A DNA stretch of 64,000 bases from a virus (IMGVR_UViG_3300020577_012633:59216-123215); one strand, 5' to 3'; shown: positions 1,042-61,499, numbered from the stretch's first letter. A program made the numbers and translations. Notes: generated by a model from the letters alone, not told the origin.

Positions 1042-1160
1042 AAACAAAATCCTTTCATTGGCGAGTTTCATCTTCTGCCTCGCCTTTTTACATTGTTATT
1101 GAGTTATTATCGGCAACGTGGTTGCAAAAGAACAAATAAACACAAGCCGATATTTGTGTC

Positions 1161-1877
1161 ATGGAAACAATTATACCAAAAATATTTCACCAAATATGGC
1201 TCAATGGGAAACTTCCTGAAGAACATTGTTGTTTTAGAGATCATATGTTAGAACTGCATCCTGGATGGGAATATAAACTTTGGACAAAAAGAAATATGCC
1301 CAAACTCATAAATCAAGATATTTTTGACAAATGGCCTGAAATGTGTTTCAAAGCTGATGTACTTAGATATGAAATATTGTACAAATTTGGAGGGATTTAC
1401 ATAGATACTGATTTTTTGTTCTACAAAAATATAGAAGAATGTATGCAAAAGGAATATCTTATAGTCAATGAATTTGATGAACCGTATTTTCATGCGGGTT
1501 GTTATCATATGACGAATAATTGTCTTATAGGAGCTGTTCCAAAAAGCGCATTAATGCAATATGTTGTATACAAACTAAGAGAAAGTATGCAAAGATATGA
1601 GGAATTAAAGAACAAATATAATCATTTTGATGCAGGTCTTTCAACTGTTGGTCCATATTTTTTTGACAAATGCGTAGAAGAGATTATTGGAAGAAGTTTC
1701 TCTTACGATACAAAATATTTCTGTCCATTTAGACCTCATGATTTGCCTCATAAACAATATGAAAATTTTCCTGATGCATACGCAATTCATTTATGGAATA
1801 ATAACTGGAGAACCTATGGTGGAGCTGAAGTTTATAAAACTCTTCCATGTTACAAAAGAAAACATGGAATAAAATGA
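1161..1877 (+). CDS. Glycosyltransferase, GT32/OCH1-like
   Basis: IPKIFHQIW, ADVLRYEILYKFGGIYIDTD (DxD). Confidence 0.9.
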   Translation: METIIPKIFHQIWLNGKLPEEHCCFRDHMLELHPGWEYKLWTKRNMPKLINQDIFDKWPEMCFKADVLRYEILYKFGGIYIDTDFLFYKNIEECMQKEYLIVNEFDEPYFHAGCYHMTNNCLIGAVPKSALMQYVVYKLRESMQRYEELKNKYNHFDAGLSTVGPYFFDKCVEEIIGRSFSYDTKYFCPFRPHDLPHKQYENFPDAYAIHLWNNNWRTYGGAEVYKTLPCYKRKHGIK

Positions 1878-2551
1878 TACCAAAAATATTCCATCAGATA
1901 TGGTTTGAAGGTAAAATTCCAGAACCGTTTTTTTACTTTTCTGAACATTTAAAACAACTTCATCCTGGATGGGAATATAAGTTTTGGAATATAAATAATA
2001 TGCCAGAACTTATTAATCAAGAAGCATTTGAATTTTACAACAATGTAATATTCAAATCTGATATTCTTAGATATGAAATGCTTCATAAATTTGGAGGAAT
2101 ATATGTCGATTTTGATTTCCTGTTTTATAAAAATATAGAACCGTTAATAACAGATGATTATTTTTTAGTTTTTGATGTTGACAACTTGCATATAAATAAC
2201 TGCATTATGGGATTCTCAAAAGAAAATGAAATAATAAAATCAGTAATTGATGAAATACCAAAATCACTCGCAATTGCTAAACAAATAAAAAACGGAAGAG
2301 ACAATTTACAAGTTGGATTAAATGCAGTTGGTCCAAGATTCTTACAAAGAACTATTTCAAAGTTTGATAAAATCAAATTTATTGACAGAAAATTCACTCA
2401 TCCATTCGGAACAGAAGAGGTAATAGAAAAACAATTAAATGAGTTTCCAGACTCTTACGGAGCGCATTTTTGGAGTTCTCATAATGGAACATATTTTATA
2501 GAAGCTCATAAAAAGCTTCCATGCTACATCATGCGTGAGAATGTTCACTAA
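1874..2551 (+). CDS. Glycosyltransferase, GT32/OCH1-like (tandem paralog)
   Basis: IPKIFHQIW, SDILRYE..FGGIYVDFD; ATGA overlap with upstream paralog. Confidence 0.9.
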   Translation: MIPKIFHQIWFEGKIPEPFFYFSEHLKQLHPGWEYKFWNINNMPELINQEAFEFYNNVIFKSDILRYEMLHKFGGIYVDFDFLFYKNIEPLITDDYFLVFDVDNLHINNCIMGFSKENEIIKSVIDEIPKSLAIAKQIKNGRDNLQVGLNAVGPRFLQRTISKFDKIKFIDRKFTHPFGTEEVIEKQLNEFPDSYGAHFWSSHNGTYFIEAHKKLPCYIMRENVH

Positions 2552-3797
2552 GAGATACAGGTCCACCAGTTTTATCATCGAGATCAAAATTGGCGTCTAT
2601 GAAATTTATTACCTCTTGAGGATCAATGCCTTTGTTAAAGACAATATTTGGTCCATGATTGTCAAGATATACTGCATATAGATTGCCAAACTTAGCAAGC
2701 CCATTTGAAGTATTTTGACCGCACTGGTGAGAGCCACATTCGTATTCTCTTTGAGAAACAGTAGGAACAAGATCTCTTGGGTTTTGTTTCAACGGACAAT
2801 GAAAATGTACAATACAATCGCAATCTGGATGTTCTGCAAAAACAATACGTTGAGATTGTCCGCCTACGGAAGGTTTAGCGCCATAAGCAATAACTCTATC
2901 CGGCCCATCAGTCTCAATCTTTACAAGACCATTCTTTTCAATATCATTGAAGTTTGTTTTGCGAATAGAAGTCAAGAAAGTTGTTGGACCAATTTTTGCA
3001 GCAAAATGGCCGACAGTCGCCCCACTAGGACCAACCTTATATGCTCCATTTGCAACACAATAGTCTACAACCGTTCTAAGAACCTCAGGAACAAGATCTG
3101 ACTTCCAAGGAATAGGATCGCCAGCTATGACAGTAGAACGAGTAAAAGTAAGATGAGAACGAAGTTTAGTCATTTCAACAAGACCGCGAAGAGCTGCATC
3201 TCTGTCAAAGGTAACGTGATATCTTGCTTCTTCTGGCGTGATGACCATATTCAATCGCGTCTTTACGTCATTTGCAAGGACAAGGTTACAAGAAGCTTTC
3301 TTGCAAAGATCAAGACCTGCAATATATTGTTCATCTTCTGTTGCGTTACAGGTAGTCTTAAATCCAACAAGGAAAATATCCTTGCGACTATATTTTTCTG
3401 CGCGGAAAAATTTAATCACTTTCTTTTTCATGGATAGATCAATTTTATAACCATTCAAATTCCTTGAATTTAATCTGGTTTCATATTTACCAGGAGAATT
3501 TTCTCCAACCTTTCCTTCATAATCACACATAGCGCAAGAAAAGAAAACAATCTTGACGTTCAAATCAGAGACTATATCCTTTACCCATGCTTCAACATCT
3601 TCATTTGTTTCCATAGCAGAGCCAGGATCTGCCATTTTAGTTAGGCACATTGAGGTAGTCATGCTAGGAATCAATTCTTCGCAAAGAGATTGAAGCTTTC
3701 GTGCTGTTTTACCATAAGCAGGAGCGCACAAAGCTAAATGAGCAGTGACATGAGAAACAGTTCCGCCGCCAAAGATAGCGATTTTCTTGGGGTTCAT
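2529..3797 (-). CDS. CoaB/DFP-like domain fused to class II aldolase/adducin domain
   Basis: GGGT, AMCDY, LVGFKTT, LVLAND in N-half; CIVHFH and LDNHG in C-half. Confidence 0.65.
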   Translation of the reverse strand: MNPKKIAIFGGGTVSHVTAHLALCAPAYGKTARKLQSLCEELIPSMTTSMCLTKMADPGSAMETNEDVEAWVKDIVSDLNVKIVFFSCAMCDYEGKVGENSPGKYETRLNSRNLNGYKIDLSMKKKVIKFFRAEKYSRKDIFLVGFKTTCNATEDEQYIAGLDLCKKASCNLVLANDVKTRLNMVITPEEARYHVTFDRDAALRGLVEMTKLRSHLTFTRSTVIAGDPIPWKSDLVPEVLRTVVDYCVANGAYKVGPSGATVGHFAAKIGPTTFLTSIRKTNFNDIEKNGLVKIETDGPDRVIAYGAKPSVGGQSQRIVFAEHPDCDCIVHFHCPLKQNPRDLVPTVSQREYECGSHQCGQNTSNGLAKFGNLYAVYLDNHGPNIVFNKGIDPQEVINFIDANFDLDDKTGGPVSLSEHSHA

Positions 3798-3801
3798 TAT
3801 T

Positions 3802-4647
3802 TTAACTCCAATAAGTGTAAATGCAGGGACGCAATTCGTTTACGGTTTTTGCCCAATCTTTGAATAATCCAACGTAATAAGTCCACAGAATGACAGATGC
3901 ATGAATTTCAGGTCGATATGTTTCATTCATTTTAATAATATCAGCATTAGAAAGAGATGGTCTTATTTTTTCGCTGAAACGTCCTGTAAGAATATTATAT
4001 GTTCCGCCATTTATTCGATCAGGAAAAAATTCAAGATTATTTTCCATTAAAAAAGGAAGATCATGTACTAGATTTTCTTTAACAATTCTGATTTTATCTT
4101 TGTACGGAATTCTTATCATCATTCCATAAGGGTATATACCACAGAGACCAGTCCTTTGATCAAGCCATTGAATCTTTACATCTACTGAACCACCAGCTTC
4201 ATAGTAATCAATCATATCATCGCTGCGATAAAATGATTTTTGTTCTGGAGGTATAATACCAAAAACGTTTGGAAATCCGAACTCTCCGCAGTAAGCAAAT
4301 CCTAGATGGAAAATGCTTTCTATTTTAGACTTCTTTTCATTTTCAGGTAAAGCCATGAAATCTTTGGCATATTGATAAATACCCCAATTTATGCCAGAAA
4401 TATCTCCTTCCGAAGGACCATTTGCTTGCGCAAGTATTTCTTTGTGTTCTGAAAGCTTAGACTCGTCTAATATCCATTGAAGAAATGGAATAAACATCCT
4501 ACGAGGACGCTCATAATCTTCATCATCATATTCCTCTTTTATTCCAAGCATCCATTCCTGGAATCTTGAATCTGCTAGTCTTGTTTTTTTGTTTGTTACA
4601 ACGTTATCAAGAGCATAGCAAAGGTGTTTTTTAATCCTCATTCCCAT
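3802..4647 (-). CDS. Hypothetical protein
   Basis: 281-aa ORF abutting neighbours. Confidence 0.6.
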   Translation of the reverse strand: MGMRIKKHLCYALDNVVTNKKTRLADSRFQEWMLGIKEEYDDEDYERPRRMFIPFLQWILDESKLSEHKEILAQANGPSEGDISGINWGIYQYAKDFMALPENEKKSKIESIFHLGFAYCGEFGFPNVFGIIPPEQKSFYRSDDMIDYYEAGGSVDVKIQWLDQRTGLCGIYPYGMMIRIPYKDKIRIVKENLVHDLPFLMENNLEFFPDRINGGTYNILTGRFSEKIRPSLSNADIIKMNETYRPEIHASVILWTYYVGLFKDWAKTVNELRPCIYTYWS

Positions 4648-10962: not shown

Positions 10963-11003
10963 TAAAAAGCCATTCAAGATTTCTCTTGAGTGGCCCTTGT
11001 GTT

Positions 11004-11456
11004 TTAGGACTCGAATTCTTCAAGATGAGCAAGCATATTGTCGATCTGATCAGGAGTCAGCCCAATAGATTTCACATCATCAGGAGTTGCATACGGATAT
11101 CTTGCGATTGCGTAAGCAGCTTCAATGCCCATGCTATTAAGGGCATGGCATCCTTCAGGAACAAAATTCAATTTTCCAAAAACAGGATATCGCTGAGGCT
11201 CAGGCTTAGGACCAACAATTTCAAAGCCGGTTTTCTGACCATTCTCATTACGATACCACTTACGAAGAATGCGATTCTGGGGTTCTTTGCGATTCCATCG
11301 CTCCCATTCTGCATTACGACGAAGAGCCTTCCAGTAGAAGCTATAGAGTTTCTTGAGCTTCTTGAAAGTATCGAAATCGCAAGCATGATAACCCCAACGA
11401 CCTTGATAAGTATTCTGGTTGAACTTATTCTTCTGTGCATTCTGAATCGTAGTCAT
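11004..11456 (-). CDS. Hypothetical protein
   Basis: 150-aa ORF with RBS. Confidence 0.6.
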   Translation of the reverse strand: MTTIQNAQKNKFNQNTYQGRWGYHACDFDTFKKLKKLYSFYWKALRRNAEWERWNRKEPQNRILRKWYRNENGQKTGFEIVGPKPEPQRYPVFGKLNFVPEGCHALNSMGIEAAYAIARYPYATPDDVKSIGLTPDQIDNMLAHLEEFES

Positions 11457-11476
11457 AAATTTTCCTTTTTCTAAAA

Positions 11477-12040
11477 TTACTGGTTTCCGTACTTTTCTTT
11501 GAGACGAGCATATTCTTGTTTATCATGCTCTTCATTTAACAGTTTCATTCTTTCTTTTTCTTGCTGTTCTTCTTGTTTCTTTTTTTGCTCCTTTTCTAGT
11601 TTTTGTTTTTCCTCGTTTGCAAGCCTAATTGCTGTCGCATTTTTCTTTTTCTGGTTAACTATATTTAAGAGTTCTTCCCGATGTTCCCAGTCAGTCGGAG
11701 TATCTAGAGTTCCGTTTTCTCCGCTAATACAAAAATTTTCATCAGTGAAGCTATATTTTGAAATAATCAGGTGTGAATATTCGTATTCAGGATCATGTTC
11801 TTTGGTCCGAGACTTAGCGATGCTTTCTTCAAACTCGCTATAGTATTTGCATCTGTGAACTTCATCATAGAATTCTCTATCAAGTTTAACAATATGATTG
11901 GCGATATCTTCAAGAGAATTGAAAATTTCAGTTACCATATTGGCATCCTTGGAGTGCCGCCAATCGCACTCGCCTCTGAAATAACTTGCAAGTTCGCAGT
12001 TATTGATATGACTGATAACGATGACAGGAAAACTGTTCAT
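11477..12040 (-). CDS. Hypothetical protein (C-terminal coiled coil)
   Basis: 187-aa ORF. Confidence 0.55.
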   Translation of the reverse strand: MNSFPVIVISHINNCELASYFRGECDWRHSKDANMVTEIFNSLEDIANHIVKLDREFYDEVHRCKYYSEFEESIAKSRTKEHDPEYEYSHLIISKYSFTDENFCISGENGTLDTPTDWEHREELLNIVNQKKKNATAIRLANEEKQKLEKEQKKKQEEQQEKERMKLLNEEHDKQEYARLKEKYGNQ

Positions 12041-13206
12041 GATCTATTCTCCATATTTGATAAGTTCAAAAGTTGATATTTACGAAAAAGATTTCTCTTT
12101 TTAGAATCAGCAGGAATCGGTTCTGTGGCAATGGCAGTCACTTCGTAATCCTCACAATTATTGTTTATTGATGAAACAGTCGATACTACATTGTATGGAG
12201 GTTTATTATGACAAACATTACCGTTGGATCTTCCTTTGGGAAATGGAAAGTCATCTCTGTTGGGCATAGACCCGAAGGAAGCCTTTCTAGGGCCAAATAT
12301 TTTCTTTGTGAATGCCAATGTCCTGCTAAAACTAGAAGAATGGTTATAGGGCGTAGTCTTCGCGAGGGAACTAGCAAAAGTTGTGGATGCATTGGTCCAT
12401 CTCAAAATACTGGGAAAAATGAAATTAACAAAACGTATGGAAAATGGACGGTTCTTGATGAAGCTAAAAAACCTGTTCATATAACTGGAAGAGGTAAGTA
12501 TTTTTTGTGCGAATGTTCTTGTATTCATAAGACTAGAAGAATCATTTCTGGTCACGCACTCCGTAGCGGAGGATCTAATAATTGTGGCTGTAAATGGAGA
12601 TATTCGATTAGAAATGTAGACGCTCCATTTAATATGTTGCTTGGAAATTATATAAACAGCGCGAATAAAAGAAACAAGTCTTTTAACTTGTCTTTGGATG
12701 ACATTAAGCGTCTTTCGCAAGATATTTGTTTTTATTGCGGACAACAACCAATGGCAACTTTGAAGCCATTTGGCAAGCATAATTTTGTTTATAATGGTAT
12801 TGACAGGATAGACAATTCTCTTGGATATACCATTAAAAATTGTGTTTCTTGTTGCAAGAACTGCAATACCGCAAAACTTGACATGAACGTTGACCAGTTT
12901 AAGAATTGGATTACATCGGTCTACCTGAGACTTTGTAAGTGAATTCGAATTTCTTGGTCTATCAGGTTCTTGAAACTTGGCGACCTGAATGCCATAATAT
13001 TGGAGACGATCGTGAGCTTTCAAAAGCTCGCTTTCGTTCTTTACGCCAATAAGAACAAGATGAGGATGTTCTTGGTTCTAACCAGGAGCAAAAGCTCTGA
13101 TTGCCTCAATCACAGCGTGTGCGCTTTGAACAGCGATCTGCGACTGCGAGAGGTCTTCTCTAACGAGAACGTACATGTAAACAGTTTGTGATTGTACCTA
13201 CGTCAT
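12037..13206 (-). CDS. Pth2-like (peptidyl-tRNA hydrolase II-like) gene with two in-frame TAG and an 807-bp in-frame insertion; recoded gene or pseudogene
   Basis: Manual translation MT*VQSQTVYMYVLVREDLSQSQIAVQSAHAVIEA..G*NQEHPHLVLIGV..FQEPDR[insert]DYEVTAIATEP; AGGAG RBS and promoter upstream. Confidence 0.7.
12208..12942 (+). CDS. HNH-type homing endonuclease inserted antisense in the Pth2-like gene
   Basis: Two CECxC..SCGC repeats, CFYCG, GIDRIDN..GY..NCVSCCKNCN..K. Confidence 0.85.
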   Translation: MTNITVGSSFGKWKVISVGHRPEGSLSRAKYFLCECQCPAKTRRMVIGRSLREGTSKSCGCIGPSQNTGKNEINKTYGKWTVLDEAKKPVHITGRGKYFLCECSCIHKTRRIISGHALRSGGSNNCGCKWRYSIRNVDAPFNMLLGNYINSANKRNKSFNLSLDDIKRLSQDICFYCGQQPMATLKPFGKHNFVYNGIDRIDNSLGYTIKNCVSCCKNCNTAKLDMNVDQFKNWITSVYLRLCK

Positions 13207-13227
13207 ATTTTGTCTCCTAAGTAAGTC

Positions 13228-15144: not shown

Positions 15145-15158
15145 TTTAACCTTTCAAA

Positions 15159-15233
15159 TGCCCTCGGCGGGACTCGAACCCACAACTCTCAGAATTTTAG
15201 AGATTCCGGTTCTGCCAATTGAACTACGAGAGC
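15159..15233 (-). tRNA. Amber suppressor tRNA (CTA)
   Basis: Full cloverleaf; anticodon arm GGAAT-CTCTAAA-ATTCT. Confidence 0.88.
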
Positions 15234-16617
15234 AATATCAGTCACCTTCAAACGAAAGAGAAAAAGGCTTTCTCCACATTCCGTAATTGTTCTTAATTTT
15301 CATACCATCAATAACTTCCTGGGGAGGAGAATTTGGAATGATAGTACACTGGTCTTCATGAACATTGAAGTCTCTATCTCCTTCGGCAGTTTTCGGGTCC
15401 ATGACCTTGTAAATAGCGCCAAACCAGGAGAAAGCAAACTTACCGTCATCACACTTCCACCAGCCAATATCTCCAATTGCATCACGATTCTTGCGAATCC
15501 TTCGCATAAGAGAAAGCGCCTCTTTAGAAACTTTAACCATTTCCTTAGAGTTTATAACAACGCATCCAAGGTTATCGTTCCCAGTAGGAAAGAAACCTTT
15601 GTTCTTCTTATGAGAAGAAGGACAAAAGACAATCTTGCCATCAATAGCAAAAATATTTACAGTAAATGGATTTGCCTTTTTTGTTGGTTTTTTGGTTTTT
15701 GTTTTACTGGTTAGAATTTTTGAACCAACATTTTTATTTTTTACTGTCATATTCTTATTTCCCGTACCAAGCCGCGATTGGTTTAATAATAGCAAAAGCT
15801 GACCAACAATGATAAACATAGCCAAAATCGTGACAATTCATTCTAAAACCTTTACCAATCGTCCCGTCAAAATCTTTAATTTCTTTTTCCCAATTATTAT
15901 CTAGATCAAAGTCATTCAAGTTTGCATTTTTCAACCATGCAATTACAAAATCTTTCCAGTCGATATCAAAAGTTTTTACTTCTATTTTTCTGGCTTCAGA
16001 ATTAATCGTAAAATATTGGTCTTTTGGGTCAGTCCAAAAAAGAACAAGACCTTTTCTTGGTACAATAGTATAATGAGAGGCTCCTTTAGGACAAAGAGCA
16101 GACAAATAATCAAGACACGCATTTAGTGTCTTATAATCGCCTCTAATATCGAATAATATGTTATTCATTTTATTCTGGATCTTTTTCAATAGCGACAGAA
16201 TGACCTGCTAATCCAAAGAAAACAACATCCGCAATTGAAAGCATGAACTCTCTATGTGGAGTCCTCTTAAACTCATGCAGGAATACTTCGCAATTTTCAG
16301 CCTGAACGGCAGCTTGTTCCAGCCTAGCTTTGATCTTTTCAATTTGACCGCTATTTATGGCGATAGAACGATCAGCAAGAAGCTGTGTCATCTTGCTTCT
16401 AAAATATTCTTCTTGCTCTTTGTAAAAGGAAACTTTTTTAGTAGCAGCCTCTATCAGCAAAGAACCTGGATATGTAAATTTCCATGTTTCCCGATTTCTG
16501 TCTTTGAATTCACTGTACATTTTAAATTCCTTTTTGAAGTTTTTCTTACTCTAAATTCGCCTTGAAAAGTCTAGGGCCAATTTTGTTGATGGAGGCAATC
16601 TCAATAACCAGTCTGTA

Positions 16618-45523: not shown

Positions 45524-45611
45524 CGGATGATGCAGGATTCGAACCTGCGTAGGCTTTAGACCTCTCTTGTTTTCGAAACAAGTGCATTAAACCAGACTCT
45601 GCCAATCATCC
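45524..45611 (-). tRNA. tRNA-Ser(CGA)
   Basis: CTTGT-TTCGAAA-ACAAG, long variable arm. Confidence 0.92.
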
Positions 45612-46262
45612 CAATCATAAACCATGTTTTTTGAAGGTTTCAATATCTTGTTTTAGATTTGTCGCCATCATTGTCAAATATATAAGTATTTGACCTTGAG
45701 AACAGGAAGCCCAACCTTTATTTTCAAAATCCAAATAAAACTTGTTTTCTTCTATGTATCTGTGTATTTCTTTTTCTACCTGTAATAGCAAAATAGATAG
45801 ATTTGTAGAAAGTTTATCCATGCATTAACTTGGCATGAATAATTGTATTTATCCTCTATAATTCCTACTCAAATTCTCCAGCAGAAAAAGACCAATCATC
45901 CTCGTCTTTCCATTCCATTTTCCTGCTAACTCTTTCTTCCCAACCTGGATATTTTCTTAAACAATAATCAAAGTGGTTCAATTCTTCATTTTTAGTATTT
46001 TCAACAATCAGGAAAAACTCTTCAACTGAAAACGTTTTCTCGTATTCATCTATTATAGGCCTTTCCATTCCACTATTTTCAATTTCTCTCTTCCAGTCCT
46101 CCCAAGAAATAATATGAGGGATATTATCGACAAGCCCATGAAAAGAGAATTTCCAGCCAGAAGATCTTTTACCTATGTGAATCTTTTCGTGTCTATTACA
46201 AGATTCACATTTGTTTTTTATCAAATAATAGTTAGTACCCATGAATACATCCTTATTTAAGC

Positions 46263-47825
46263 TTATACCAAAACTCTAGCTTCATTCATGGCATCTTTAA
46301 TTTTCGCCTCTTCACCAGCCGCCATAAACTTGGCCAATTTTATTCCCCATCCGGTAAGCTGCGAAGTTGCCCATTCAGACGCTTTATTTACGCAATTGCG
46401 AGGACCATAGGACTGAACAACCTTACCTTGATTGTTGATCATAATAGAAGCTTTTTCGCCATTATAATCAACATGGAACAGGAAACATTCGCCTTTAATG
46501 GCAGTCCTTGAATAACTTGCTATACAATGTCCCATATCAACGCCTTCAGCGATAATCTCTTCAACCGTTTTTAGAAAACGTATATTTTCATTTTCTGGCA
46601 AATCAATAGGAGGCATTTTTGCAGGCATAAGCTTTTCAGCCTCCTGCTCAGCAAGTCTTTCTGCTTCTCTTATAGCATACTCAGCCGCTCTTTGAGGAGC
46701 AAGCCTTACATATTCCTCTTCTCTTCTTATTGCTTCAATGCGTAACAATTCATAACGAGCCTGTCTTATTAAATCTGCATCCTGATGCCAGCGATGAGAC
46801 TTCTCAAGAAGTCCAATTATCTCTCCTTCATGCTTTTGATCGTAATCACAAACATAATTTACAAAGTATTGAATACCTTTATGTCCTCTAAGAGTAAAAG
46901 AGCATGACTTATGCTTTTTTATATAACTTTTCCTGAATAGCTTGAATGCCTTACGAATCTGTTCAGGACTAGATCTCATAAAACAATCAACATGATTTAT
47001 TTTGTCTGGTTGCCAAGAGTTATGCTCATTAGCCATAATTACAGCCATAATTTTAATTCTGTCAAATATAGGCTCACTGAGATGAATTTTATTAAGTTTC
47101 TTGGCAAGATTTACAGGAATGCCACGAGGCCAATTATCCAAAGTCTTATTAAGTGCTTTGTATGTTTTAGGAATGTCTGAAAAAAGAAGACGCCAATTGT
47201 CAGCTTTTCTTTCTACTCTGGCATAATCACCTTCAAACTGGAAAACAATTTTATCTCCATCAAAAATAGATTTATCTAAACAAAGATGAATAGCATTATA
47301 AGTAAGAAGATCGTTTATAAAAGCTTTATTGCTAAAGATCTTAGATTCCATAAGAATACGAGGAACTAAGGCCTTTGGGCCTCTTGTAACAAAGAACTTC
47401 TTATGAATAGAAGAAACTTCTGGTTGAACGTTTTCCAACATACTCTTCCATGCTGGATAAAGGTAATAACCAAGACCCTTTGTGAATTTAGCCTTGGCCC
47501 ATTCTTTAAGCTTTTTACCAGGCAAACATTTAAATTGCGTTTTTCCTTGAGCCGCTAACTTATCAGATCTAATCTGTATCCAGTTAAACATAATCTCATC
47601 TATCATCTTCTCTTTCAAGAGAGGATAGTTCATAATGGAAATAAGATCGCTATGGTGACGAACACCGTTGCGATGAAATTCTATTTCAATGTTATTATCT
47701 ATCTTGATTTTAGCATCAAGAAGACCTTCTCTCTTGATATTACAACCAGTATCTGTTTTCTCTACATTATAGAGAACTGGTTTAGTTGCATCAAAAACGA
47801 AGGTTTTAACTATTTTCTCTGGCAT
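46263..47825 (-). CDS. Large protein with C-terminal PcfJ-like domain
   Basis: IAEG.DMGHCIASY, VQSYGPRN. Confidence 0.65.
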   Translation of the reverse strand: MPEKIVKTFVFDATKPVLYNVEKTDTGCNIKREGLLDAKIKIDNNIEIEFHRNGVRHHSDLISIMNYPLLKEKMIDEIMFNWIQIRSDKLAAQGKTQFKCLPGKKLKEWAKAKFTKGLGYYLYPAWKSMLENVQPEVSSIHKKFFVTRGPKALVPRILMESKIFSNKAFINDLLTYNAIHLCLDKSIFDGDKIVFQFEGDYARVERKADNWRLLFSDIPKTYKALNKTLDNWPRGIPVNLAKKLNKIHLSEPIFDRIKIMAVIMANEHNSWQPDKINHVDCFMRSSPEQIRKAFKLFRKSYIKKHKSCSFTLRGHKGIQYFVNYVCDYDQKHEGEIIGLLEKSHRWHQDADLIRQARYELLRIEAIRREEEYVRLAPQRAAEYAIREAERLAEQEAEKLMPAKMPPIDLPENENIRFLKTVEEIIAEGVDMGHCIASYSRTAIKGECFLFHVDYNGEKASIMINNQGKVVQSYGPRNCVNKASEWATSQLTGWGIKLAKFMAAGEEAKIKDAMNEARVLV

Positions 47826-47840
47826 GTCTGTTACCTCTAA

Positions 47841-47922
47841 AGCCACCGACAGGACTTGAACCTGCAATATCTTTCGATGCCACTTTACAAAAGTGGTCCC
47901 TTGCCATTCGGGTCACAGTGGC
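47841..47922 (-). tRNA. tRNA-Thr(TGT) with long variable arm
   Basis: CCACT-TTTGTAA-AGTGG; variable arm ATC-GAAA-GAT. Confidence 0.85.
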
Positions 47923-49193
47923 GTATTGTTATTATTTTCCTAACAATGCAATTCTTATATTTTCGACTATTCCTGAAAGTTTCCTTTCATCTTCTTTGTG
48001 AGATTGATCACAAAATTCATAACCCATAAGCCCATTCTGCTGCATTCCTCCTATAACAGAAAAAGCTTCATTTACTAAATGATGAACAAGAGCCATTTGT
48101 TGTCCCGTAAAATCAAATTCAGGATTATTAGGATTCCCAGCTCCCATAAAGATTTGATCATCAAACAATATTTTGTCAGCTATGCTTTCAAGAGAATATC
48201 CGCTTCTATCAATAGCTATTTCGAGAACTGATTTCATATAGCAACCTTAGAACAATTCGCCTTTGACTGAATCATTGCACTTTCCAGTTCATTTGCGAGC
48301 TTACGAAGATTATCAGGATTTAAAGATATTCCTATAAGATTAAACTCAGCAGAATTTCTATATGATTGCAAAGTAAGTTTTTGATTGGTATAAATTCCAG
48401 TTTTAGGACCATTTCCATTATCAAAAAATTCTGTTTCAAGAAAAAGAGATTCTTCGCGATCATCATTTGGATTGAAAACGAAAACGTGTTTACCAACATT
48501 TTTGTCTCTATTTGCCATTGCCAATCCTTTACTTAAACAAGAACCTGTGTTTATTCAACCATTCTGCTTCAAGACTAATCTCATCTTCATCATCTTCTAT
48601 TTCTTCATCATCGTCACAATTTTTATCTATTATATCTTGGTCATCACAGCAAGGACCGCACCAAAGAATACCATTCCCGTAATAGTCATTAAGTTCATCT
48701 ATTGAAAAGCCACTTGTTCCGCATTTCTTACATTTCATCTTTATCCTCCTGTTTCTTTGATATATGAATATTTTTTGAGAAAAGAGAAAGCATTCCGCCA
48801 TTAAAGCTTATATAATAATCTTTCTTAAGAATATCAAGAAAAACTTTGGCGTTTGCGTCTTTTATTAATTTTTTCAAATTAGAACAAAAACTTAGAAAAT
48901 CTTTGTCATTTGGCAATAACATAATCATATCCAATAAGAAATTTCTTCTGGAACCATTATTTCTTTATTTTGTTTTGTAGCTTTTTGGGAACTTCCACCA
49001 TATCGGTTTTTTATAAACCGATCTTCTTGAAGACAATAAACAAAATCAGCAGTAGCTAGTTTGTGAGAACTAAGCTTTAGTGATTCTTTGACAGAATCGC
49101 AAACTATGGCAATGGCTTCTTTCATAGTCTTTAATCGTCAATCAAAGACTATATGCTCAAGAAATACACCAAGGAATTTATTTTATGTGCAAA

Positions 49194-49286
49194 CGGTTGA
49201 GGTTGGTATCGAAACCAACTAATCCAATAATCTTTGTTCGTCGGCCTATTTACATAGACATAGATTTGAAGAAAGATTTCTCAACC
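49194..49286 (-). ncRNA. tRNA-like RNA (acceptor + T arm only) with Y-RNA-like motif
   Basis: GGTTGAG/CTCAACC, GTTGG-TTTCGATA-CCAAC, internal GGCCGA-N8-GATTATTG. Confidence 0.6.
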
Positions 49287-49290
49287 AAAA

Positions 49291-49412
49291 TCGCTTCGGA
49301 CGGGATTCGAACCCGCCAACCTCTTCATTATGAGTGATAACCGTCAACAATCGACCTATTCGGTATGTTGGAGTCAACGGGCTTTAGCGCTCTACCATTG
49401 AGCTACGAAGCG
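49291..49412 (-). tRNA. tRNA-Met(CAT) with 48-nt Y-RNA-like insert in the anticodon stem
   Basis: CGCTTCG/CGAAGCG, D arm, CT[insert]TCA-CTCATAA-TGAAG, T arm. Confidence 0.75.
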
Positions 49413-49416
49413 AAAA

Positions 49417-49487
49417 TTGCTAGGAAGGAGTCGAACCTTCATCTCCAAGTTAAAAGCCTGGAATGTTACCAATTACAACACTAGCTA
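49417..49487 (-). tRNA. Atypical tRNA-Lys(TTT)-like
   Basis: TCCAGG-CTTTTAA-CTTGGA and T arm; imperfect acceptor, no clear 8-9 linker. Confidence 0.55.
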
Positions 49488-49642
49488 GCTGTCTTTCCAG
49501 CAGTCCAACCTCGTTTATTGTCATCATTTCAAGCCCATCGGGCTTGTGATTTACTTTAGGAGTATGGTTTATTCCTATCCTCGTTTTGCTCTTGCCAGAG
49601 ACTTATAGGAGTTTGGACTATTCCTTTGGCAATCAAGTTTGT

Positions 49643-50410
49643 TTAATTCGCAAATAATTCCTTCACTTGCAAAGCTGTAGATCGAACACTTCTGAACAGA
49701 TTCAACTGAGGCTCAATAATGTCATAATACAGATCATCAAGCTTATCCTTTTCAACATCCTCAGGGATAGAACTCTTCTCAAGTTCAATTGGCACTTGAG
49801 CATCCAGTTCTTCATAACGAGCTTTTACAACTTCAACAGGAATCTCTCCATGACGAACCTGACGAAGAAAATCCGCGTTAGGCCTAGGAAAAGTAATCGT
49901 GCCTGTCTGTAGAAGCTCAATACACTCTTCAAGCAATCTTACTGCATGGTAAGCATTCTTAATACTGTAACCATAAGCAACAATATGCTCTTTACGTTGC
50001 GCTCCAAGTTTTCTCATTTGCTCGAAATAATCTACAGCCTTTTTCCACTCTCCAAAAGCAAAACCCTGCATTGGCTTAATAAGCTTTTTAGAAACAAATA
50101 GATGTTTATTATCAATTAGTTTCTGACCAGCTTCAGTAATTTCAAGAATATGTTCTTTCGGCGCAAAAAGAATTTCTGCCGTATTAGGACTGAAACGTTC
50201 AAGCAAGTTAAAAAACTTAGGAAAAGACCATATTACTGTATCTGGATCTTTACTTTCATACTGATCCCAGTGACGACGGCCAAGAAGATATTCAGCATAA
50301 GGCACCGCAAAACCGCGAGTATCAATGTCGCTTGTTGGCGTGCTACATCCATAAAGATGAGAACCAGTTCTGACTAGCAAGTCTGGTCTCTTATAAAAAT
50401 CAGCTATCAT
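49643..50410 (-). CDS. Pol-beta superfamily nucleotidyltransferase (RlaP/YcgL-like)
   Basis: GSHLYG..TPTSDIDTRG, PN..EIL, HAVRLL. Confidence 0.85.
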   Translation of the reverse strand: MIADFYKRPDLLVRTGSHLYGCSTPTSDIDTRGFAVPYAEYLLGRRHWDQYESKDPDTVIWSFPKFFNLLERFSPNTAEILFAPKEHILEITEAGQKLIDNKHLFVSKKLIKPMQGFAFGEWKKAVDYFEQMRKLGAQRKEHIVAYGYSIKNAYHAVRLLEECIELLQTGTITFPRPNADFLRQVRHGEIPVEVVKARYEELDAQVPIELEKSSIPEDVEKDKLDDLYYDIIEPQLNLFRSVRSTALQVKELFAN

Positions 50411-50502
50411 AACTTGGTCCTCCTTTCTTCTATGAAATCAACTATTTGAACTTTTGGTTTATCAAATATTCTAAGCAATCTTGTAATAACTCGCAAAAAA
50501 AG

Positions 50503-51071
50503 TCAAGGTGACAGGATTCGAACCTGCGGACTCGTGGACCCTACCATATAAAATCATTAGCCCATTTAATATTCTTTTTTTGCCCGTTTTTAGGCTTTTC
50601 AATTCTCACGCATAACATTCTTTTATTTTCAAATTGTTCTGGCCCAAAACACAGGATTTTATCTATTTTTGGAACATAAACAAGAACTAAATCAATATCT
50701 TTTGAAGAATAAGTATCATGTTTATATTTAGTAAGAGCTGTTTTTCTTGCCATTTCAATTCTAACAGAACCTTCACTATCTTTAGATACTTTCCCGTCTC
50801 CATATTTACATTGAATCTTTAGTATTTTGCCATTATTTTCAATAAGTAAATCGTACACTGATTCTGTTGTGGGTATTGATACTATGAAATCTTTTTCCAT
50901 AGCTCTTTGTTGTATCTTAAGCACTGCTAACTGACCTTTATTATTTGTATTCATTTAAATTCCTATATTAGTATTAGAACCTTGTGGTATAGTTACATAG
51001 GGTTATTGAATATCCTTCTTATACAAATAAAATTACTAACCACGCACTCTACCAAGCTGAGCTACACCCTG
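50503..51071 (-). tRNA. Split tRNA-Pro (reconstructed AGG); halves 51036-51071 and 50503-50543
   Basis: Halves join to CGTGG-TTAGGGT-CCACG; TAG duplicated at the junctions. Confidence 0.8.
50541..50954 (-). CDS. PD-(D/E)XK endonuclease (I-Ssp6803I-like family)
   Basis: KGQLA, VSIP...YDLLIE..KIQCKY, IDLVLVY. Confidence 0.8.
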   Translation of the reverse strand: MNTNNKGQLAVLKIQQRAMEKDFIVSIPTTESVYDLLIENNGKILKIQCKYGDGKVSKDSEGSVRIEMARKTALTKYKHDTYSSKDIDLVLVYVPKIDKILCFGPEQFENKRMLCVRIEKPKNGQKKNIKWANDFIW

Positions 51072-51594
51072 AAAACTTAAGCCTCACTCATACCAATTAA
51101 CATGTAACTTTTTCAATCTCGCAAGCTGTATGATAGTCCTTATCAATAGCTGATTCAATCTCATCCATTTTTTTCAAATAACATTCTATAAGATCAGGAT
51201 CTTCTAGACCATCAACAATATTAGACAAAGAAATCATTTCATCAAGACCTGCTACAGTCTTAAGGATATATTCTTTTTGCAACTGAATAAGCTTTATTTT
51301 CTTTTCGTTATTTTGATTAGTGCTACTCATGTAACATTAATCGTCTTATTTTTTACGAGATTTTAGGCTATCACGCCATTTATCGCTTGTATGATATTGC
51401 CACAAATTACATTTTTTACACTTATAGCCATGTTCATATATCTTTTTCTTTAAATTCAAAATACTAACTAAAGGGTGCAATGCACATTTAACATAAGTCA
51501 TTGTTTTTTTACAATTAGCACACTTTACTAATGTATTTTCATCTACATCTATTACTCGATATAGATTATTCTTTTTACGGATAGATCCCATAAG

Positions 51595-51668
51595 TCAGAA
51601 TAACAGGATTTGAACCTGTAGCCTTCTCGTCCCGAACGAGATGCTCTACCAAATTGAGCTACATTCTG
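51595..51668 (-). tRNA. tRNA-Pro(CGG)
   Basis: TCTCG-TTCGGGA-CGAGA. Confidence 0.9.
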
Positions 51669-51675
51669 AATTTAT

Positions 51676-51981
51676 TTATGAAGAAACTTTTTGAATGGCT
51701 TCTTTTATTTTGGCCTCAGTCTGAAGACCAACTAGCTTTTCAGCAAAAACTCCATCTTTGAAAATTACAATAGAAGGAATAGATGTTACATTATACGTTT
51801 TTGCAAGATCTGTATTTTCTTCAACATTCGCTTTCAAAAAGGTAACATTTGATATTTCTTTAGAAAGCTTTGTTAGAAGAGGCATAAGCATTTTACATGG
51901 CATGCACCAATCTGCCCAAAAATCAACAACAACTATAGGATAGTCTGAAGGTTCAAATTTAGATTCTATTATTTCTTTCAT
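51676..51981 (-). CDS. trxA: Thioredoxin
   Basis: DFWADWCMPC, SIP. Confidence 0.9.
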   Translation of the reverse strand: MKEIIESKFEPSDYPIVVVDFWADWCMPCKMLMPLLTKLSKEISNVTFLKANVEENTDLAKTYNVTSIPSIVIFKDGVFAEKLVGLQTEAKIKEAIQKVSS

Positions 51982-52006
51982 TTTTTACTCACAATAACGA
52001 ACAAAG

Positions 52007-52081
52007 TCAGGGAGACAGGATTCGAACCTGCGACTTCTTGGACCCAAACCAAGCGCTCTAGCCAAGCTGAGCTACACCCTG
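52007..52081 (-). tRNA. tRNA-Pro(TGG)
   Basis: CTTGG-TTTGGGT-CCAAG. Confidence 0.93.
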
Positions 52082-52161
52082 AAAGCCCGTCCTTGATTCT
52101 GGTCACTCTTTCGAGGAGAGCAGAGACGGGAAGTCAGCACGCGTGCTGACATTATATGTTG

Positions 52162-52288
52162 CTGACAAATATAGGGCCGTATCTAGGAGTTTCAGAATAC
52201 TGGAAGCCATTGCTGGATAGTCTCTTTATCTGAGTCATAAAGACCACTTCTACGCATAATGTTAACCTAGAAAACATCGACTTGTCAG
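52162..52288 (-). ncRNA. Y-RNA-like ncRNA
   Basis: CTGACAAGT/ATTTGTCAG closing stem, GTCGA-N9-GGTTAACA. Confidence 0.65.
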
Positions 52289-52304
52289 TGACTACTAAAA
52301 CTAA

Positions 52305-52435
52305 AGACAAATATGTTGTTGCATTTAGCGATCTCAGAAACTGTACCTCATTCCGAGGCTAGGTCATCTCTGATGAACAACCTACTGAACGAACTTCTCC
52401 TATTAGTATGTTAAGCTAAACGCTCCGACTTGTCT
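52305..52435 (-). ncRNA. Y-RNA-like ncRNA
   Basis: AGACAAGT/ATTTGTCT closing stem, GTCGG-N8-GCTTAACA; GTCGATA motif just upstream. Confidence 0.65.
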
Positions 52436-52647
52436 AATAAAGTATCGACATTTCTATAAAGAAATCTCGAACTACACGCTTTTCAACCTTGGGCCGCTAC
52501 AACATTTCCTTTATCATCATATATCAAAACTTTACCATTTTGATCCACTCCAAAAACTCTTTTCCCTTTTGGAGCTTTTAAATCTGTTTCATATTTTTTA
52601 GTCTTATTATTGAACTTTACATTAACTTGTTTGGCTTTTTTCATAAG

Positions 52648-52720
52648 TGGAGACTACGGGAGTCGAACCCGTGACCTTTTGCATGCCATGCAAACGCTCT
52701 GCCAACTGAGCTAAATCCCC
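52648..52720 (-). tRNA. tRNA-Ala(GGC)
   Basis: TTTGC-ATGGCAT-GCAAA; G3.U70. Confidence 0.93.
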
Positions 52721-52744
52721 AAAAAGGAGGGATAAAACCCTCCT
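52721..52744 (-). terminator. Intrinsic terminator after the RF gene
   Basis: AGGAGGG/CCCTCCT hairpin followed by TTTT. Confidence 0.7.
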
Positions 52745-52749
52745 ACTAT

Positions 52750-53500
52750 TTACTTCAATATGATATCAAGATTTCCCTTTATAACATCTTTGATATCATA
52801 TGTTTTCTTGCCTGTCAAATGATCAGAAACATAGCCCTTATAGAAACAATAAGTTCTTCTAGCTCCGCCTCTTCCTGTATTGCTGAGAATGTTTTTACGC
52901 TTTTCAGCATAATCCTTATTTTGTTCAGCAAACTTCATTTCTTGAATACGTCCGCACAGAAGCTCATAAGCATGAGCTTTATTCTGCTGAGGAGAACGAT
53001 GAACCTGAGACTTAACAAAGATTCCTGTTGGAATATGTTTCATTCTACATGCACTCTTGCATGTATTAACTCCTTGACCACCTGGTCCTGAAGCATTTTG
53101 AAACATAATCTCAATGTCTTCGTCTCTAATAATCGCTCCTTTGAAAGCAAATATTGGCAAGATTCCAACTGTTACAGTTGAAGTATGACGACGACCGCTT
53201 CTTTCGGAAGGAGGACATCTTTGAACAACATGCTTGCCTGATTCATTTTCAAAAGCAGATAATACATTTTTACCGCTTATTTCAAGAGTAGAAGAACCGT
53301 AATCAACATCAACAATCGAAATGGTTAGGTTCTTCTTTGTTGCGTATCTAACATATATTTCGGAGAGTTCGTGAACAAAGTTTTTAGCATCTTCTCCACC
53401 CTCTCCTGCTCTTATTTCAATAAGAATAGAAGAAGGGTCAAAGAGACTCCTGTGCCTTATGCTGAAGGCCATCGTTCCAGCGATTTCTGTTACTATTCAT
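52750..53500 (-). CDS. Class I peptide release factor homolog (lacks domain 1) with a predicted +1 programmed frameshift
   Basis: EIRAGEGG, GRRHTS, GPGGQ; AGGAG-TCT-CTT-TGA-C at 53451-53437 in frame with ATG 53500. Confidence 0.85.
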
Positions 53501-54107
53501 AGCAAAACCCTTTCAATTAAAAGTCCACTGGCTTCTTGCAAAAATAACAAGACTACGGTTCGCTTGCCGCTGCGCTACATCGTTGTTTTCATATTGAAAA
53601 CATTAGGTTCTTTAATTGGATGAATGCTGGCGACATCCCCACTCCACTGAACTGTTCCAATACAAAATAAATGGAACTTAGGCTCTCCATTAACTTCTTT
53701 TTCTACTGTCCTGGCTTTTGCATGTATATGAACTTCAGAAGCTAAATGCTCAATATCATTTATGACAACTCTCCATTTGCGACCTTCTGGATCATTTTGC
53801 CATTTGGTATTGAATCTCAAAAGTATATTATCATATTCTATCATGGTAATTCATTTTTTGCTTCTACTTCAATTTCTCTTGAAGAATAACATTCTGATAT
53901 TAATCGAAAATGTTGTATTTTTGGGCCACCAAGACCTTCATATGTTGCAATACGCAGTCCTTTAGTATTATATCCACGAGGAATTCTACAAACAACATTA
54001 TCTTTTGGACCAAAAGGATCTGAATCTTTTTCTATAGACCAACAAAAATCTCCAGCTAAAAGAAGTATTCCATCTTTTGTTATAGGAAGAGACTTTTTCA
54101 TAGTAAA

Positions 54108-54178
54108 CTGACCTACTAGGATTCGAACCTAGGCAACAGACTCCAAAGGACTGCGTGCTACCGTTACACCATAGGTCA
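54108..54178 (-). tRNA. tRNA-Gln(TTG)
   Basis: Loop CTTTGGA, cloverleaf. Confidence 0.9.
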
Positions 54179-54376
54179 ATATAATTATCTTCTTTTGGAA
54201 GACTTTATAGCAAGAAGTGCTTCTTGCATTTTTCTCTTAAGTCTAGCTTGTCTTTTACGATGCCTTTTTGCTGTATTCTTTTGCTTACTTGTCATTTCTT
54301 GCCTTTCTGATTAATTTCTGCGCCAGAAATATAATCATCGTATACATATGATGTAAAATTCAACCATTCACCAAAA

Positions 54377-54447
54377 TAGCCCGACAAGGATTTGAACCTA
54401 GACTAATTGAATCAGAATCAACTGTGCTACCGTTACACTATCAGGCT
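54377..54447 (-). tRNA. tRNA-Gln(CTG)
   Basis: GTTGA-TTCTGAT-TCAAT. Confidence 0.88.
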
Positions 54448-54733
54448 AAAACTTTCCAAACCATTCTTTTACGCTGCCGTCATTCCTGTCGTCTTCATCT
54501 TCTTGCGACATTCTTTCAAACTCTTTTTCTTGATTCTTGTATGCTTCATCATTGAATATTTTCATCATTCTTATGGCATGAGCGTATTTAGAACAAGATT
54601 CTTTATGACCAAAAGCAGGCTCTTCGCTATTATTACAAGTCATTTCTTTGCATTCATCGCATCGAATCTTCCATTGACTCATAACAGCAAAATATGCCTG
54701 CTTCTTTTCTTTATCAGAAATCTCTTCCATAAG

Positions 54734-54807
54734 TGGACCTGACGAGCATCGAACTCGCTTCCTCAACGTTGCGAACGTTGCGCTCTACCCAACTGAGCTT
54801 CAGGCCC
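54734..54807 (-). tRNA. tRNA-Ala(CGC)
   Basis: CAACG-TTCGCAA-CGTTG; G3.U70. Confidence 0.9.
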
Positions 54808-54811
54808 AAAA

Positions 54812-54872
54812 ACCAGTATGTTTGTGAAATAAGGGGTACGTTACAAGTGATAACCTTATTTCTTCGACTGGT
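54812..54872 (-). ncRNA. Minimal Y-RNA-like hairpin
   Basis: ACCAGT-CGAA-GAAATAAGG...CCTTATTTC-ACAAACAT-ACTGGT. Confidence 0.65.
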
Positions 54873-55081
54873 ATTTATTTCAACGACGGTGATGATAGTA
54901 AGAATGAGAATGATAGTAGTACGGAGCTGGTTGCACAAAAATTACAGTTCTTGGAGGTGGGCAATAATATGGCCCACTATCAACAACATAAGTTGTACAA
55001 CCTGTTAAACTCAAACCACAAACTGCTAACAAAAGAAAACAAACTAGTTTTTTCATATCTTCCCCCAAATATACTCTAAAG

Positions 55082-55154
55082 TGGAGCCTGCGAGATTCGA
55101 ACTCGCCGCCTATTGCTTGCAAAGCAATCGCTCTACCAAATGAGCTAAGACCCC
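55082..55154 (-). tRNA. tRNA-Ala(TGC)
   Basis: ATTGC-TTTGCAA-GCAAT. Confidence 0.92.
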
Positions 55155-55172
55155 AATAATCTATCAAACAAT

Positions 55173-55541
55173 TTATTTCTTATTTGATTCTCTTTCTTCC
55201 CAATGTAATTTTTTATGACAATTTGAACACAGAACGTCACACTTTTTCATTTCTTGTTTTATTCTTTTTAGAGAATAACCGTTTTTAATAGCCCAACTTA
55301 TTTCAAAGTCCTTTTCTGCTGAGTCTCTATGATGAAATTCTAGACAAGCTACATGACATTCGGAGCATTTTGCGCAACCATTTATTGTCTTAAATCTATT
55401 TATATATTCGTATCCAATTTTCATGTACTTATCTCTAAGAATAGATGAATTCTTGATATGCTTTTTCTTGTTTTTCTTATACCATTCTTTTTGATATTTC
55501 TTCTGGTAGGCTTTATGGTCTTCAATGTTTTTGTATGGCAT
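55173..55541 (-). CDS. Free-standing HNH endonuclease between tRNAs
   Basis: CAKC, LEFHH, CDVLCSNCHKKLH. Confidence 0.85.
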   Translation of the reverse strand: MPYKNIEDHKAYQKKYQKEWYKKNKKKHIKNSSILRDKYMKIGYEYINRFKTINGCAKCSECHVACLEFHHRDSAEKDFEISWAIKNGYSLKRIKQEMKKCDVLCSNCHKKLHWEERESNKK

Positions 55542-55596
55542 AATTTATATGTCCATATAGGACTTTTGAGTTTATAACTTCAATTTTACTTTCAAA

Positions 55597-55669
55597 TGCG
55601 TTCGGAGGGAGTCGAACCCTCAACTTCGGGCTTAAAAGGCCCTTACTCTGCCAATTGAGTTACAAACGC
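55597..55669 (-). tRNA. tRNA-Lys(TTT)
   Basis: Loop CTTTTAA, cloverleaf. Confidence 0.9.
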
Positions 55670-55742
55670 TATCTTTTACCATCATCGTCAGTCTGTTTTC
55701 GACATTTCATTGCAACACCATTCCTTTTTATATAAACACAAA

Positions 55743-55814
55743 AGCGGCTTCAGGGATCGAACCTAACTTGGGAGATAATGACTCTCCCCAGACCACCAAG
55801 GCCTAGCCAACCGC
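55743..55814 (-). ncRNA. Atypical tRNA-like RNA (6-bp D stem, loop GTCATTA)
   Basis: GCGGTT/AGCCGC, TAGGCC/GGTCTG, GGAGA/TCTCC, GGTTCGATCC. Confidence 0.55.
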
Positions 55815-56095
55815 ATCTTAATCATCTGATTGATCAAACTCAGAATCATCAGATATGTCAAAAGCTCTTGTATAATTTATTCCAATAAATTTAGAAACAT
55901 CCTCTAAGATTTCATCTATTTCTATATGCTCATTACCTTCATTACCGTGATATTCACCAGAAGCTACCTCAAAAAGCATATGCATTTTAGAAATCATTTC
56001 TTGTAAAATCTTTGATACATCCTGAAGACTTGGATCTTCATTATATTTGATATTATTTTTTAATAAATCAATAGCTTCTTGTGGTTTTATCATAA

Positions 56096-56170
56096 AGCTC
56101 CCGGTGGGACTTGAACCCACACACTTCAGTTTTGCAGACTGAGCCATTTGTCCAATTCTGGTACAGGAGC
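56096..56170 (-). tRNA. tRNA-Cys(GCA)
   Basis: TCAGT-CTGCAAA-ACTGA; U73. Confidence 0.9.
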
Positions 56171-56571: not shown

Positions 56572-56642
56572 AGACCAGATCAGGAATCGAACCTGCGATA
56601 TCAGTTTTGCAGACTGAACCCTTACCACTCAGGCATCCGGCC
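56572..56642 (-). tRNA. tRNA-Cys(GCA)
   Basis: TCAGT-CTGCAAA-ACTGA; U73. Confidence 0.9.
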
Positions 56643-56645
56643 AAT

Positions 56646-56790: not shown

Positions 56791-56825
56791 GAATTTAGTT
56801 ATCGGCTTTTCAGCCAAAACTAACT

Positions 56826-58252: not shown

Positions 58253-58255
58253 AAG

Positions 58256-61433: not shown

Positions 61434-61499
61434 TTGATACTCTCTTTTTAGAACCTTGTGCTATAGTTATATACTAGGAGTATCATATGAATCCTTCAA

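Follow-up and report, generated by a model that had tools for sequence, protein, structure and literature searches.

A phage Pth2-like gene interrupted by an antisense HNH endonuclease gene, with a host reading frame that appears to be kept translatable across the insert

The 64,000-nucleotide stretch of DNA analyzed here (the window) spans the final 64 kb of an IMG/VR viral contig of 123 kb, with a GC content of 36% and a CheckV completeness of 24%, from which we estimate a genome of about 500 kb for the source phage. The minus strand harbors a gene (12037-13206) that starts at an ATG at 13204-13206, with the ribosome-binding site (RBS) AGGAGA 6 nt ahead of it (13213-13218), and ends at a TGA at 12037-12039, comprising 389 codons if two internal TAG codons are read. 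The Pth2-like residues of its product are the first ~83 and the last ~37. The former are encoded by an N-terminal segment (12958-13206) that ends in ...VAKFQEPDR and is 88% identical to the uninterrupted homolog P0121, and the latter by a C-terminal segment (12037-12150; DYEVTAIATEPIPADSKKRNLFRKYQLL... and the stop codon). The next gene downstream (11477-12040, minus strand) has its own GGAG, and its ATG overlaps the TGA of the host gene (ATGA). This overlap is shared by L003, a related copy of the locus; in a third copy, L086, the host gene stops 17 nt short of the next ATG.

Residues 1-70 of the host product matched the Pfam family PTH2 (PF01981) with 23.5 bits against a cut-off of 23, and the same family is precomputed for the HNH-free homologs P0121-P0124. 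We are confident that the predicted structure of P0121 (pLDDT 82) has the Pth2 fold, as it retrieved 2zv3, 3erj, 1q7s and 1xty in Foldseek with E values of 3e-6 to 7e-5. The Glu in EPD aligns with the catalytic Asp in ...RDA... of solved Pth2 structures. We refer to the gene as Pth2-like, its role as a hydrolase being putative. Omega in the interrupted alleles amounts to 0.05 for the N-terminal part (window versus L003) and ~0.11 for the C-terminal part, with dS saturated, and the C-terminal flank retains the T, A, A, R and F residues that are invariant in the family. This substitution pattern indicates that both flanks are under purifying selection and that the interrupted host gene is alive. 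It should be noted that gene callers will give an HNH gene or a 328-aa "hypothetical protein" at this locus, overlooking the Pth2-like gene.

The two host segments are separated by an insert of 807 nt (12151-12957; boundaries approximate to +/-15 nt), located by comparison with HNH-free alleles. An earlier reading, made from the sequence alone (the sequence-only reading), had placed an 807-bp insert between EPDR and DYEVTAIA, and the alleles agree with it. They read ...FQEPDRNNE(I/T/V)TAIA... at this site (empty site, ...GAACCCGACCGTAACAATGAAATAACAGC...), so that the turn RNN is replaced and the net gain is 269 codons, each a sense codon when read in the host frame. The P0121 model places the insertion point in a predicted beta-hairpin turn between strands 76-81 and 87-93, two residues past the Glu aligned with the catalytic Asp.

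On the plus strand, the insert encodes a predicted PacI-like (beta-beta-alpha-metal) HNH endonuclease of 244 amino acids followed by a TGA (12208-12942), with a GGAGG RBS (12197-12201) that is kept in L003 and L086. The protein matched phrog_1035, phrog_3118, phrog_3322 and phrog_374, all HNH/endonuclease VII families, with E values of 1e-15 to 1e-12; no Pfam family reached threshold. The motif CxxC ... GIDRxDNxxGYxxxNCVxCCxxCNxAK is invariant in 5 relatives, and dN/dS of the HNH frame is about 0.2 (0.18-0.21 across three lineages). The protein also aligns with the active restriction enzyme PacI (3ldy, E = 0.007) and carries an Arg at the position of the first His of many HNH enzymes, likewise found in the aligned PacI. 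The plus-strand HNH gene with its own GGAGG, as described in the sequence-only reading, is thus supported by the ORF, the RBS and PHROG matches at E values of 1e-15 to 1e-13. The HNH ORF fills all but 72 nt of the insert. These 72 nt include a 35-nt block 5' of the gene (12155-12189, plus strand) that is near-invariant in alignments of the three lineages and contains the GTCGATA motif (12179-12185) pointed out in that reading. The motif is indeed present, but the window shows no enrichment of it (7 occurrences versus 4 expected), and it was rejected as a recurrent promoter motif. The whole block, which occurs once in the window, has only a weak sigma-70-like match and is a candidate regulatory element, probably the HNH promoter or operator. 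Based on these features, the insert is predicted to be a mobile HNH homing-endonuclease gene with its own expression signals.

The N-terminal half of the HNH gene (12237-12542, plus strand) consists of an internal tandem duplication with a spacing of 201 nt, in which "GKWKVIS...YFLCECxC...SCGC" occurs twice in all three lineages. The duplicated modules presumably form a pair of DNA-binding zinc modules.

The nested architecture was found in three diverged phage lineages, two of them deep: the window, L003/L004 (corresponding to the 494-kb genome G001, 98% complete) and L086 (a 465-kb contig). The distance from EPD to YE is 813, 801 and 801 nt, respectively, the differences being multiples of three, and the antisense open frame spans 267-271 codons. 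The HNH protein of the window is ~65% identical to those of L003 and L086, which are 84% identical to each other, and further HNH relatives (P0003-P0005) show 52-62% identity. HNH-free alleles are present in P0121-P0124, L133-L137 and L140, and the HNH-free P0121 is identical to the N-terminal part of the occupied L003 at 82 of 83 residues. The kinship of the HNH gene and its flanks is a mosaic: the HNH gene of L086 is close to that of L003, yet its C-terminal flank is nearly identical to that of the window. Taken together, presence/absence alleles and mosaic kinship are as expected of a homing element that co-converts its flanks.

Several other searches for relatives and mobility features were negative. 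No inverted or direct repeats at the insert ends were common to the three lineages, megablast of the locus against GenBank phages gave no match, and a peptide-pattern search of IMG/VR with the window HNH alone returned nothing. Among called read-through proteins in the databases there were no further nested alleles, only fusions of HD-like and Pth2-like domains. The terminase family PF03237 had no match in G000 or G001.

A related arrangement was identified in L020 (IMGVR_UViG_3300033145_001595; 2423-4216), in which the 3' end of a 395-aa gene has an HNH gene of the same family, 37% identical, on its opposite strand. The sole antisense stop of this HNH gene is the TGA of the 395-aa gene itself. 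Beyond this TGA the same frame continues without a stop for 197 codons, at the end of which the host C-terminus occurs a second time (NNWAN..LGLFDAA versus NNWAN..LGLFDTA). A search for relatives of this arrangement was negative. To judge from its layout, L020 may represent a related "read-through" state that was resolved via C-terminal duplication.

The HNH frame is codon-aligned and antisense to the host frame, and because of this alignment stops in the host frame can arise only from TTA, CTA and TCA codons of the HNH gene. Codon counts and translation of the frame upheld the observation of the sequence-only reading that there are none: no stop interrupts the minus-strand frame between 13077 and its TGA at 12037-12039, and the three codons are absent from all 244 HNH codons. 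Across the insert, the four other non-coding frames have 4-33 stops each, versus zero in the host frame. As TTA, CTA and TCA make up 3.6% of codons in genes of the contig, the probability of finding none in 244 is 1.2e-4, and given the 16 Leu and 21 Ser residues of the protein and the codon use of the genome it is 3e-5. The copies in L003/L006 and in L086 are likewise devoid of the three codons (0 of 247 each). Given amino acid sequence and genome codon use, the probabilities of an open frame for the three copies are 3e-5, 1e-4 and 6e-5. Counting as draws the distinct Leu/Ser codon states across copies, the joint probability of three open copies is 1.6e-8; on the condition of an open ancestor, it becomes 2.4e-4 x 0.012 (~3e-6).

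These related copies have stayed open despite extensive synonymous divergence. HNH dS is 1.1-1.3 between the window and the other two lineages and 0.43 between L006 and L086, which places synonymous sites near saturation between the window and the others. Each copy offers 23-31 single-base changes that are synonymous in the HNH gene and able to create an antisense stop; none has been fixed. In the three copies pooled, TCA was found 0 times versus 12.7 expected, CTA 0 versus 4.8 and TTA 0 versus 5.4, and ACA, GCA, CCA, GGA, AAA, GAA, CAA and AGA occur at their expected counts. Free-standing homologs do not avoid the three codons equally: across 63 IMG/VR loci, retrieved with an alignment query, TTA, CTA and TCA average 4.9% of codons and 0 of 63 lack them. 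The two outcomes that the sequence-only reading had named as refuting, equal avoidance in free-standing homologs and stops in related copies, were thus not observed, and both results speak against chance. Among genes of at least 200 codons and normal composition, no other in the 123-kb contig or the 494-kb relative is without these codons. The other long genes of the 494-kb relative that lack them have a GC content of 0.53 or 0.66, or only 3 Leu, versus a GC content of 0.37, 10-16 Leu and 21-24 Ser in the nested HNH copies.

The antisense frame itself has an omega of 1.2-1.35, and its amino acid identity is 44-46% where that of the HNH protein is 65%. This codon record argues that selection keeps the antisense frame open and leaves its amino acid sequence unconstrained. 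The sequence-only reading had weighed selection for dual coding against chance helped by codon bias; selection for translatability is supported by our analysis, but the peptide sequence is not what is selected, and "dual coding" therefore holds only in a weak sense. The loss of three codons at saturated synonymous sites is an unusually clean signature of selection that can be searched for genome-wide. The locus also shows that selection can preserve long antisense ORFs that encode no functional protein, which bears on gene calling and on claims of overlapping genes.

Other genes with open antisense frames were observed. Two genes downstream of the host gene, a 150-aa gene (11004-11456, minus strand) lacks TTA, CTA and TCA codons, and its full-length antisense ORF is open in the window (10986-11474, plus strand) and in L003 (4705-5211). 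Here chance is a plausible explanation, given the short length of the gene and its few Leu and Ser (P ~0.004 per gene). The antisense frames of two genes of G001 (236768-238468 and 292204-292857), with GC contents of 0.53 and 0.66 in a genome of 40% GC, are also fully open; both genes are likely recent acquisitions from a GC-rich source.

The host gene contains two in-frame TAG codons, which were absent from the sequence-only reading. The first, at codon 3 (13198-13200), is part of an ATG-NNN-TAG start kept in L003 and L086; the second, at codon 43 (13078-13080), falls between helix 1 and strand 2, in a loop that spans residues 41-49 in the P0121 model. Both are conserved in the three nested lineages and in the HNH-free L133-L137 and L140. 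Upstream on the same strand, ARAGORN identified a tRNA with anticodon CUA, an amber suppressor (15158-15234; Rfam tRNA, 51.7 bits), and in all three nested lineages such a tRNA lies 2-2.7 kb upstream of the host gene. The tRNA-CUA genes of L003 and L086 show compensatory changes in the acceptor stem and an invariant anticodon loop. The suppressor is not close to the phage tRNA-Gln and somewhat closer to one tRNA-Lys, and its discriminator base varies among lineages. Where database proteins show Q at the TAG positions, this may reflect gene calling under code 15.

Genome-wide recoding of TAG (code 15), which would place in-frame TAGs in many, typically late, genes, is not supported, as G001 shows high ORF coverage when code 11 is used. 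Reading TAG through gives no bin of G001 a specific gain in ORF coverage, and TAG terminates many genes in the phage genome. No gene other than the Pth2-like gene has a conserved internal TAG in the 123 kb compared. The pattern extends well beyond the nested alleles: among 52 distinct Pth2-like loci of phages, 42 show an in-frame stop 1-6 codons past the start, and 32 of these 42 stop-gated loci encode a suppressor tRNA inside the ~6-kb locus. Stop and anticodon are cognate in 32 of 32 cases (31 TAG with CUA, and one TGA with tRNA-UCA in L148), and 11 loci also have a second stop, in the loop that connects helix 1 to strand 2. Since the stops are cognate with a nearby suppressor tRNA, the Pth2-like gene seems meant for read-through, which in turn supports the notion that ribosomes cross its whole frame. 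A suppressor tRNA and a stop-gated Pth2-like gene thus appear, from their co-occurrence, to constitute a widespread cassette that is independent of the HNH insertion. This arrangement suggests that the Pth2-like protein is made only when the suppressor works, and stop-gating is possibly a form of feedback on suppression. The phage encodes a very large set of tRNAs, with 21 in the window (45524-63821), 26 in the contig and 71 in G001 (122-310 kb).

Taking these observations into account, we propose that a mobile HNH gene inserted backwards and in frame at a beta-hairpin turn of a phage Pth2-like gene. The HNH protein would be made from its own plus-strand message via the gene's own ribosome-binding site. 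A ribosome on the minus-strand message would start at the ATG at 13206, the phage tRNA-CUA would decode the two UAGs, and the ribosome would next read 269 sense codons, the reverse complement of the HNH gene, before entering the strand and helices of the conserved host C-terminus, with nothing excised. The product would be a ~45-kDa Pth2-like protein bearing a large loop. Each new TTA, CTA or TCA codon in the HNH gene would cut the host protein short and be purged by purifying selection, and the amino acid sequence of the passenger loop would drift freely. We consider it probable that translation of the host gene runs across the insert and that no splicing takes place; both this translation and the activity of the ~45-kDa product are inferred from the features of the locus. 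The origin of the insert counts against such read-through and is awkward to accommodate, as a typical member of this HNH family has ~10 antisense stops: the founder must have been unusually stop-poor, or the stops must have been lost while the gene was dispensable. To our knowledge, homing endonuclease genes have been thought to persist inside genes only via removal as introns or inteins or via gene splitting. We lean towards the view that this locus represents a third lifestyle besides introns and inteins, in which the endonuclease gene sits on the opposite strand with its own expression signals, stays stop-free in the host frame, adds a 269-residue passenger loop that is selected solely against three codons, and resides in a host that belongs to a suppressor-tRNA/stop-gated Pth2-like cassette.

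The main rival explanation is that the frame is open for the transit of ribosomes alone, which would shield a polycistronic mRNA from Rho-dependent termination or decay and feed the next start, the fusion protein itself being junk. The ATGA overlap in the window and L003 and the unconstrained antisense peptide (omega > 1) would both fit, and since the insert adjoins the presumed active site, 269 unselected residues at this position could well abolish activity. However, the C-terminal flank would then hardly be expected to show an omega of ~0.11 and to keep its family-invariant residues. The downstream gene, moreover, has its own GGAG, the overlap is replaced by a 17-nt gap in L086, and re-initiation after a stop would solve the problem more simply. 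Taken together, we regard transit alone as unlikely.

Removal of the insert by an unrecognized form of RNA or protein splicing, with the open frame as a by-product, seems less probable still. Such a process would account for an in-frame insertion of intron or intein type at a conserved site with presence/absence polymorphism, and a conserved Asn-Asn-Cys lies near the 3' junction. The sequence-only reading had seen no intron or intein hallmarks, and neither Rfam nor Pfam revealed any. Rfam searches of both strands between 11800 and 15400 (E <= 1) detected no intron, only the tRNA and one sub-threshold riboswitch match elsewhere, and no terminal pairing or stem was common to the three lineages. 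Given that non-ORF sequence makes up just 72 nt of the insert and that synonymous sites of the HNH gene are saturated, there is no room for a conserved ribozyme or an extended conserved RNA fold. At the protein level, Pfam found only PTH2 in the read-through protein and no Hint/intein domain. The junction nucleophiles of inteins are absent, the residues at the N-terminal junction being R or L in place of a conserved Cys or Ser, and an omega above 1 would be odd for an intein. RNA splicing, furthermore, has no need of an open frame. AlphaFold2 modeling of the 389-aa read-through protein from a 3-sequence alignment gave an uninformative mean pLDDT of 33 and was weighed neither for nor against any reading; an alignment in which MAFFT had set the C-terminal flank of uninterrupted homologs against the start of the insert was left out of the folding.

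True dual coding, in which the antisense frame would encode a functional domain and both proteins would be selected, is disfavored and retains only a slim chance: the frame of 267-271 codons is kept in three lineages, but its omega and its low identity relative to the HNH protein speak against it, and it has no Pfam or PHROG matches beyond the Pth2 flanks. That the host gene is dead and its open frame a meaningless product of chance or codon bias is scarcely credible and was rejected on the codon counts, for although some G001 genes also lack TTA, CTA and TCA, these are GC-rich or have 3 Leu, the joint probability is ~1e-8, both flanks are conserved, and so are the tRNA-matched TAGs.

The closest precedent is the ShiLan domain, a "hidden" out-of-frame HNH endonuclease in DNA methylase genes of mycobacteriophages (Arsenault, Gosselin and Gogarten, 2025, PMC11855218; first reported in PMC9957025). 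As in the present case, that HNH lies at a conserved site in a phage coding gene whose frame is stop-free, has no detectable intron or intein and a disjunct distribution, and is proposed to yield a non-spliced loop; both studies are purely computational. Of the traits of the ShiLan type, a stop-free host frame, the lack of a splicing signature and a disjunct HNH are found here, and a same-strand alternative frame is not. The ShiLan HNH uses the +3 frame of the same strand and lacks an RBS, and its route of translation is unexplained (PMC11855218), whereas the HNH described here is antisense, codon-aligned and provided with its own GGAGG; an antisense arrangement is not mentioned in PMC11855218. 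In addition, stop avoidance is quantified here over saturated synonymous sites, and the host is an amber-gated Pth2-like gene of a ~500-kb phage. What appears to be new is therefore an antisense HNH insertion that has its own expression signals and for which the signature of selection is quantitative. The antisense layout with its own RBS removes the puzzle of how the endonuclease is produced, and the locus, like ShiLan, suggests a simpler route by which homing endonuclease genes may survive, that is, as translatable, harmless filler.

Other mobile elements share part of this behavior. Endonuclease-bearing inteins are also in frame, translated with the host protein and mobile by homing, but they carry the endonuclease in the same polypeptide and splice themselves out, whereas the present insert has no Hint blocks or junction nucleophile and an omega above 1. 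Group I introns with HNH ORFs, such as I-PfoP3I (PMC3428280), likewise place an HNH gene within a phage gene that has intron-less alleles; they have a ribozyme core of ~250 nt and usually stops in the host frame, in contrast to an insert with no ribozyme, 72 nt of non-ORF sequence and an open frame. The mobE gene in nrdA of Aeromonas phage Aeh1 (PMC3045599; reviewed in PMC2988022) is an intron-less homing endonuclease gene in an essential or useful gene, and host function is retained there by an unorthodox route, as we propose for the present case. However, mobE splits nrdA into two separately translated pieces that reassemble, and the present host is a single frame with no stop and restart. 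The mobA-linked bypass cassette of T4 gene 60 (bioRxiv 10.1101/2022.08.31.505936) is also mobile and passed by ribosomes, which hop over 50 nt, whereas the 807 nt described here are apparently read codon by codon. Finally, stop-recoded phages (bioRxiv 10.1101/2021.08.26.457843) resemble the present phage in encoding a tRNA-CUA and having in-frame TAGs, but the present genome is not recoded.

Additional observations concern Pth2-like genes elsewhere. In P0130, P0132 and P0133, an HD-like domain (...FHDCGKP...HFPNH...HDM...) is fused to the N-terminal side of the Pth2-like domain, and in L086 an HD-like homolog is encoded as a separate gene (1145-1825, minus strand) two genes downstream of the Pth2-like gene, which hints that the HD-like and Pth2-like proteins act in one pathway. 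In L005, a distant Pth2-like gene without an HNH insert (2956-3300) is located in a tRNA cluster. This gene shifts frame in an A-rich run (...GVKNEKN* / ...KRKKLKAALDKA...), a change that could correspond to an assembly error or to a programmed frameshift.
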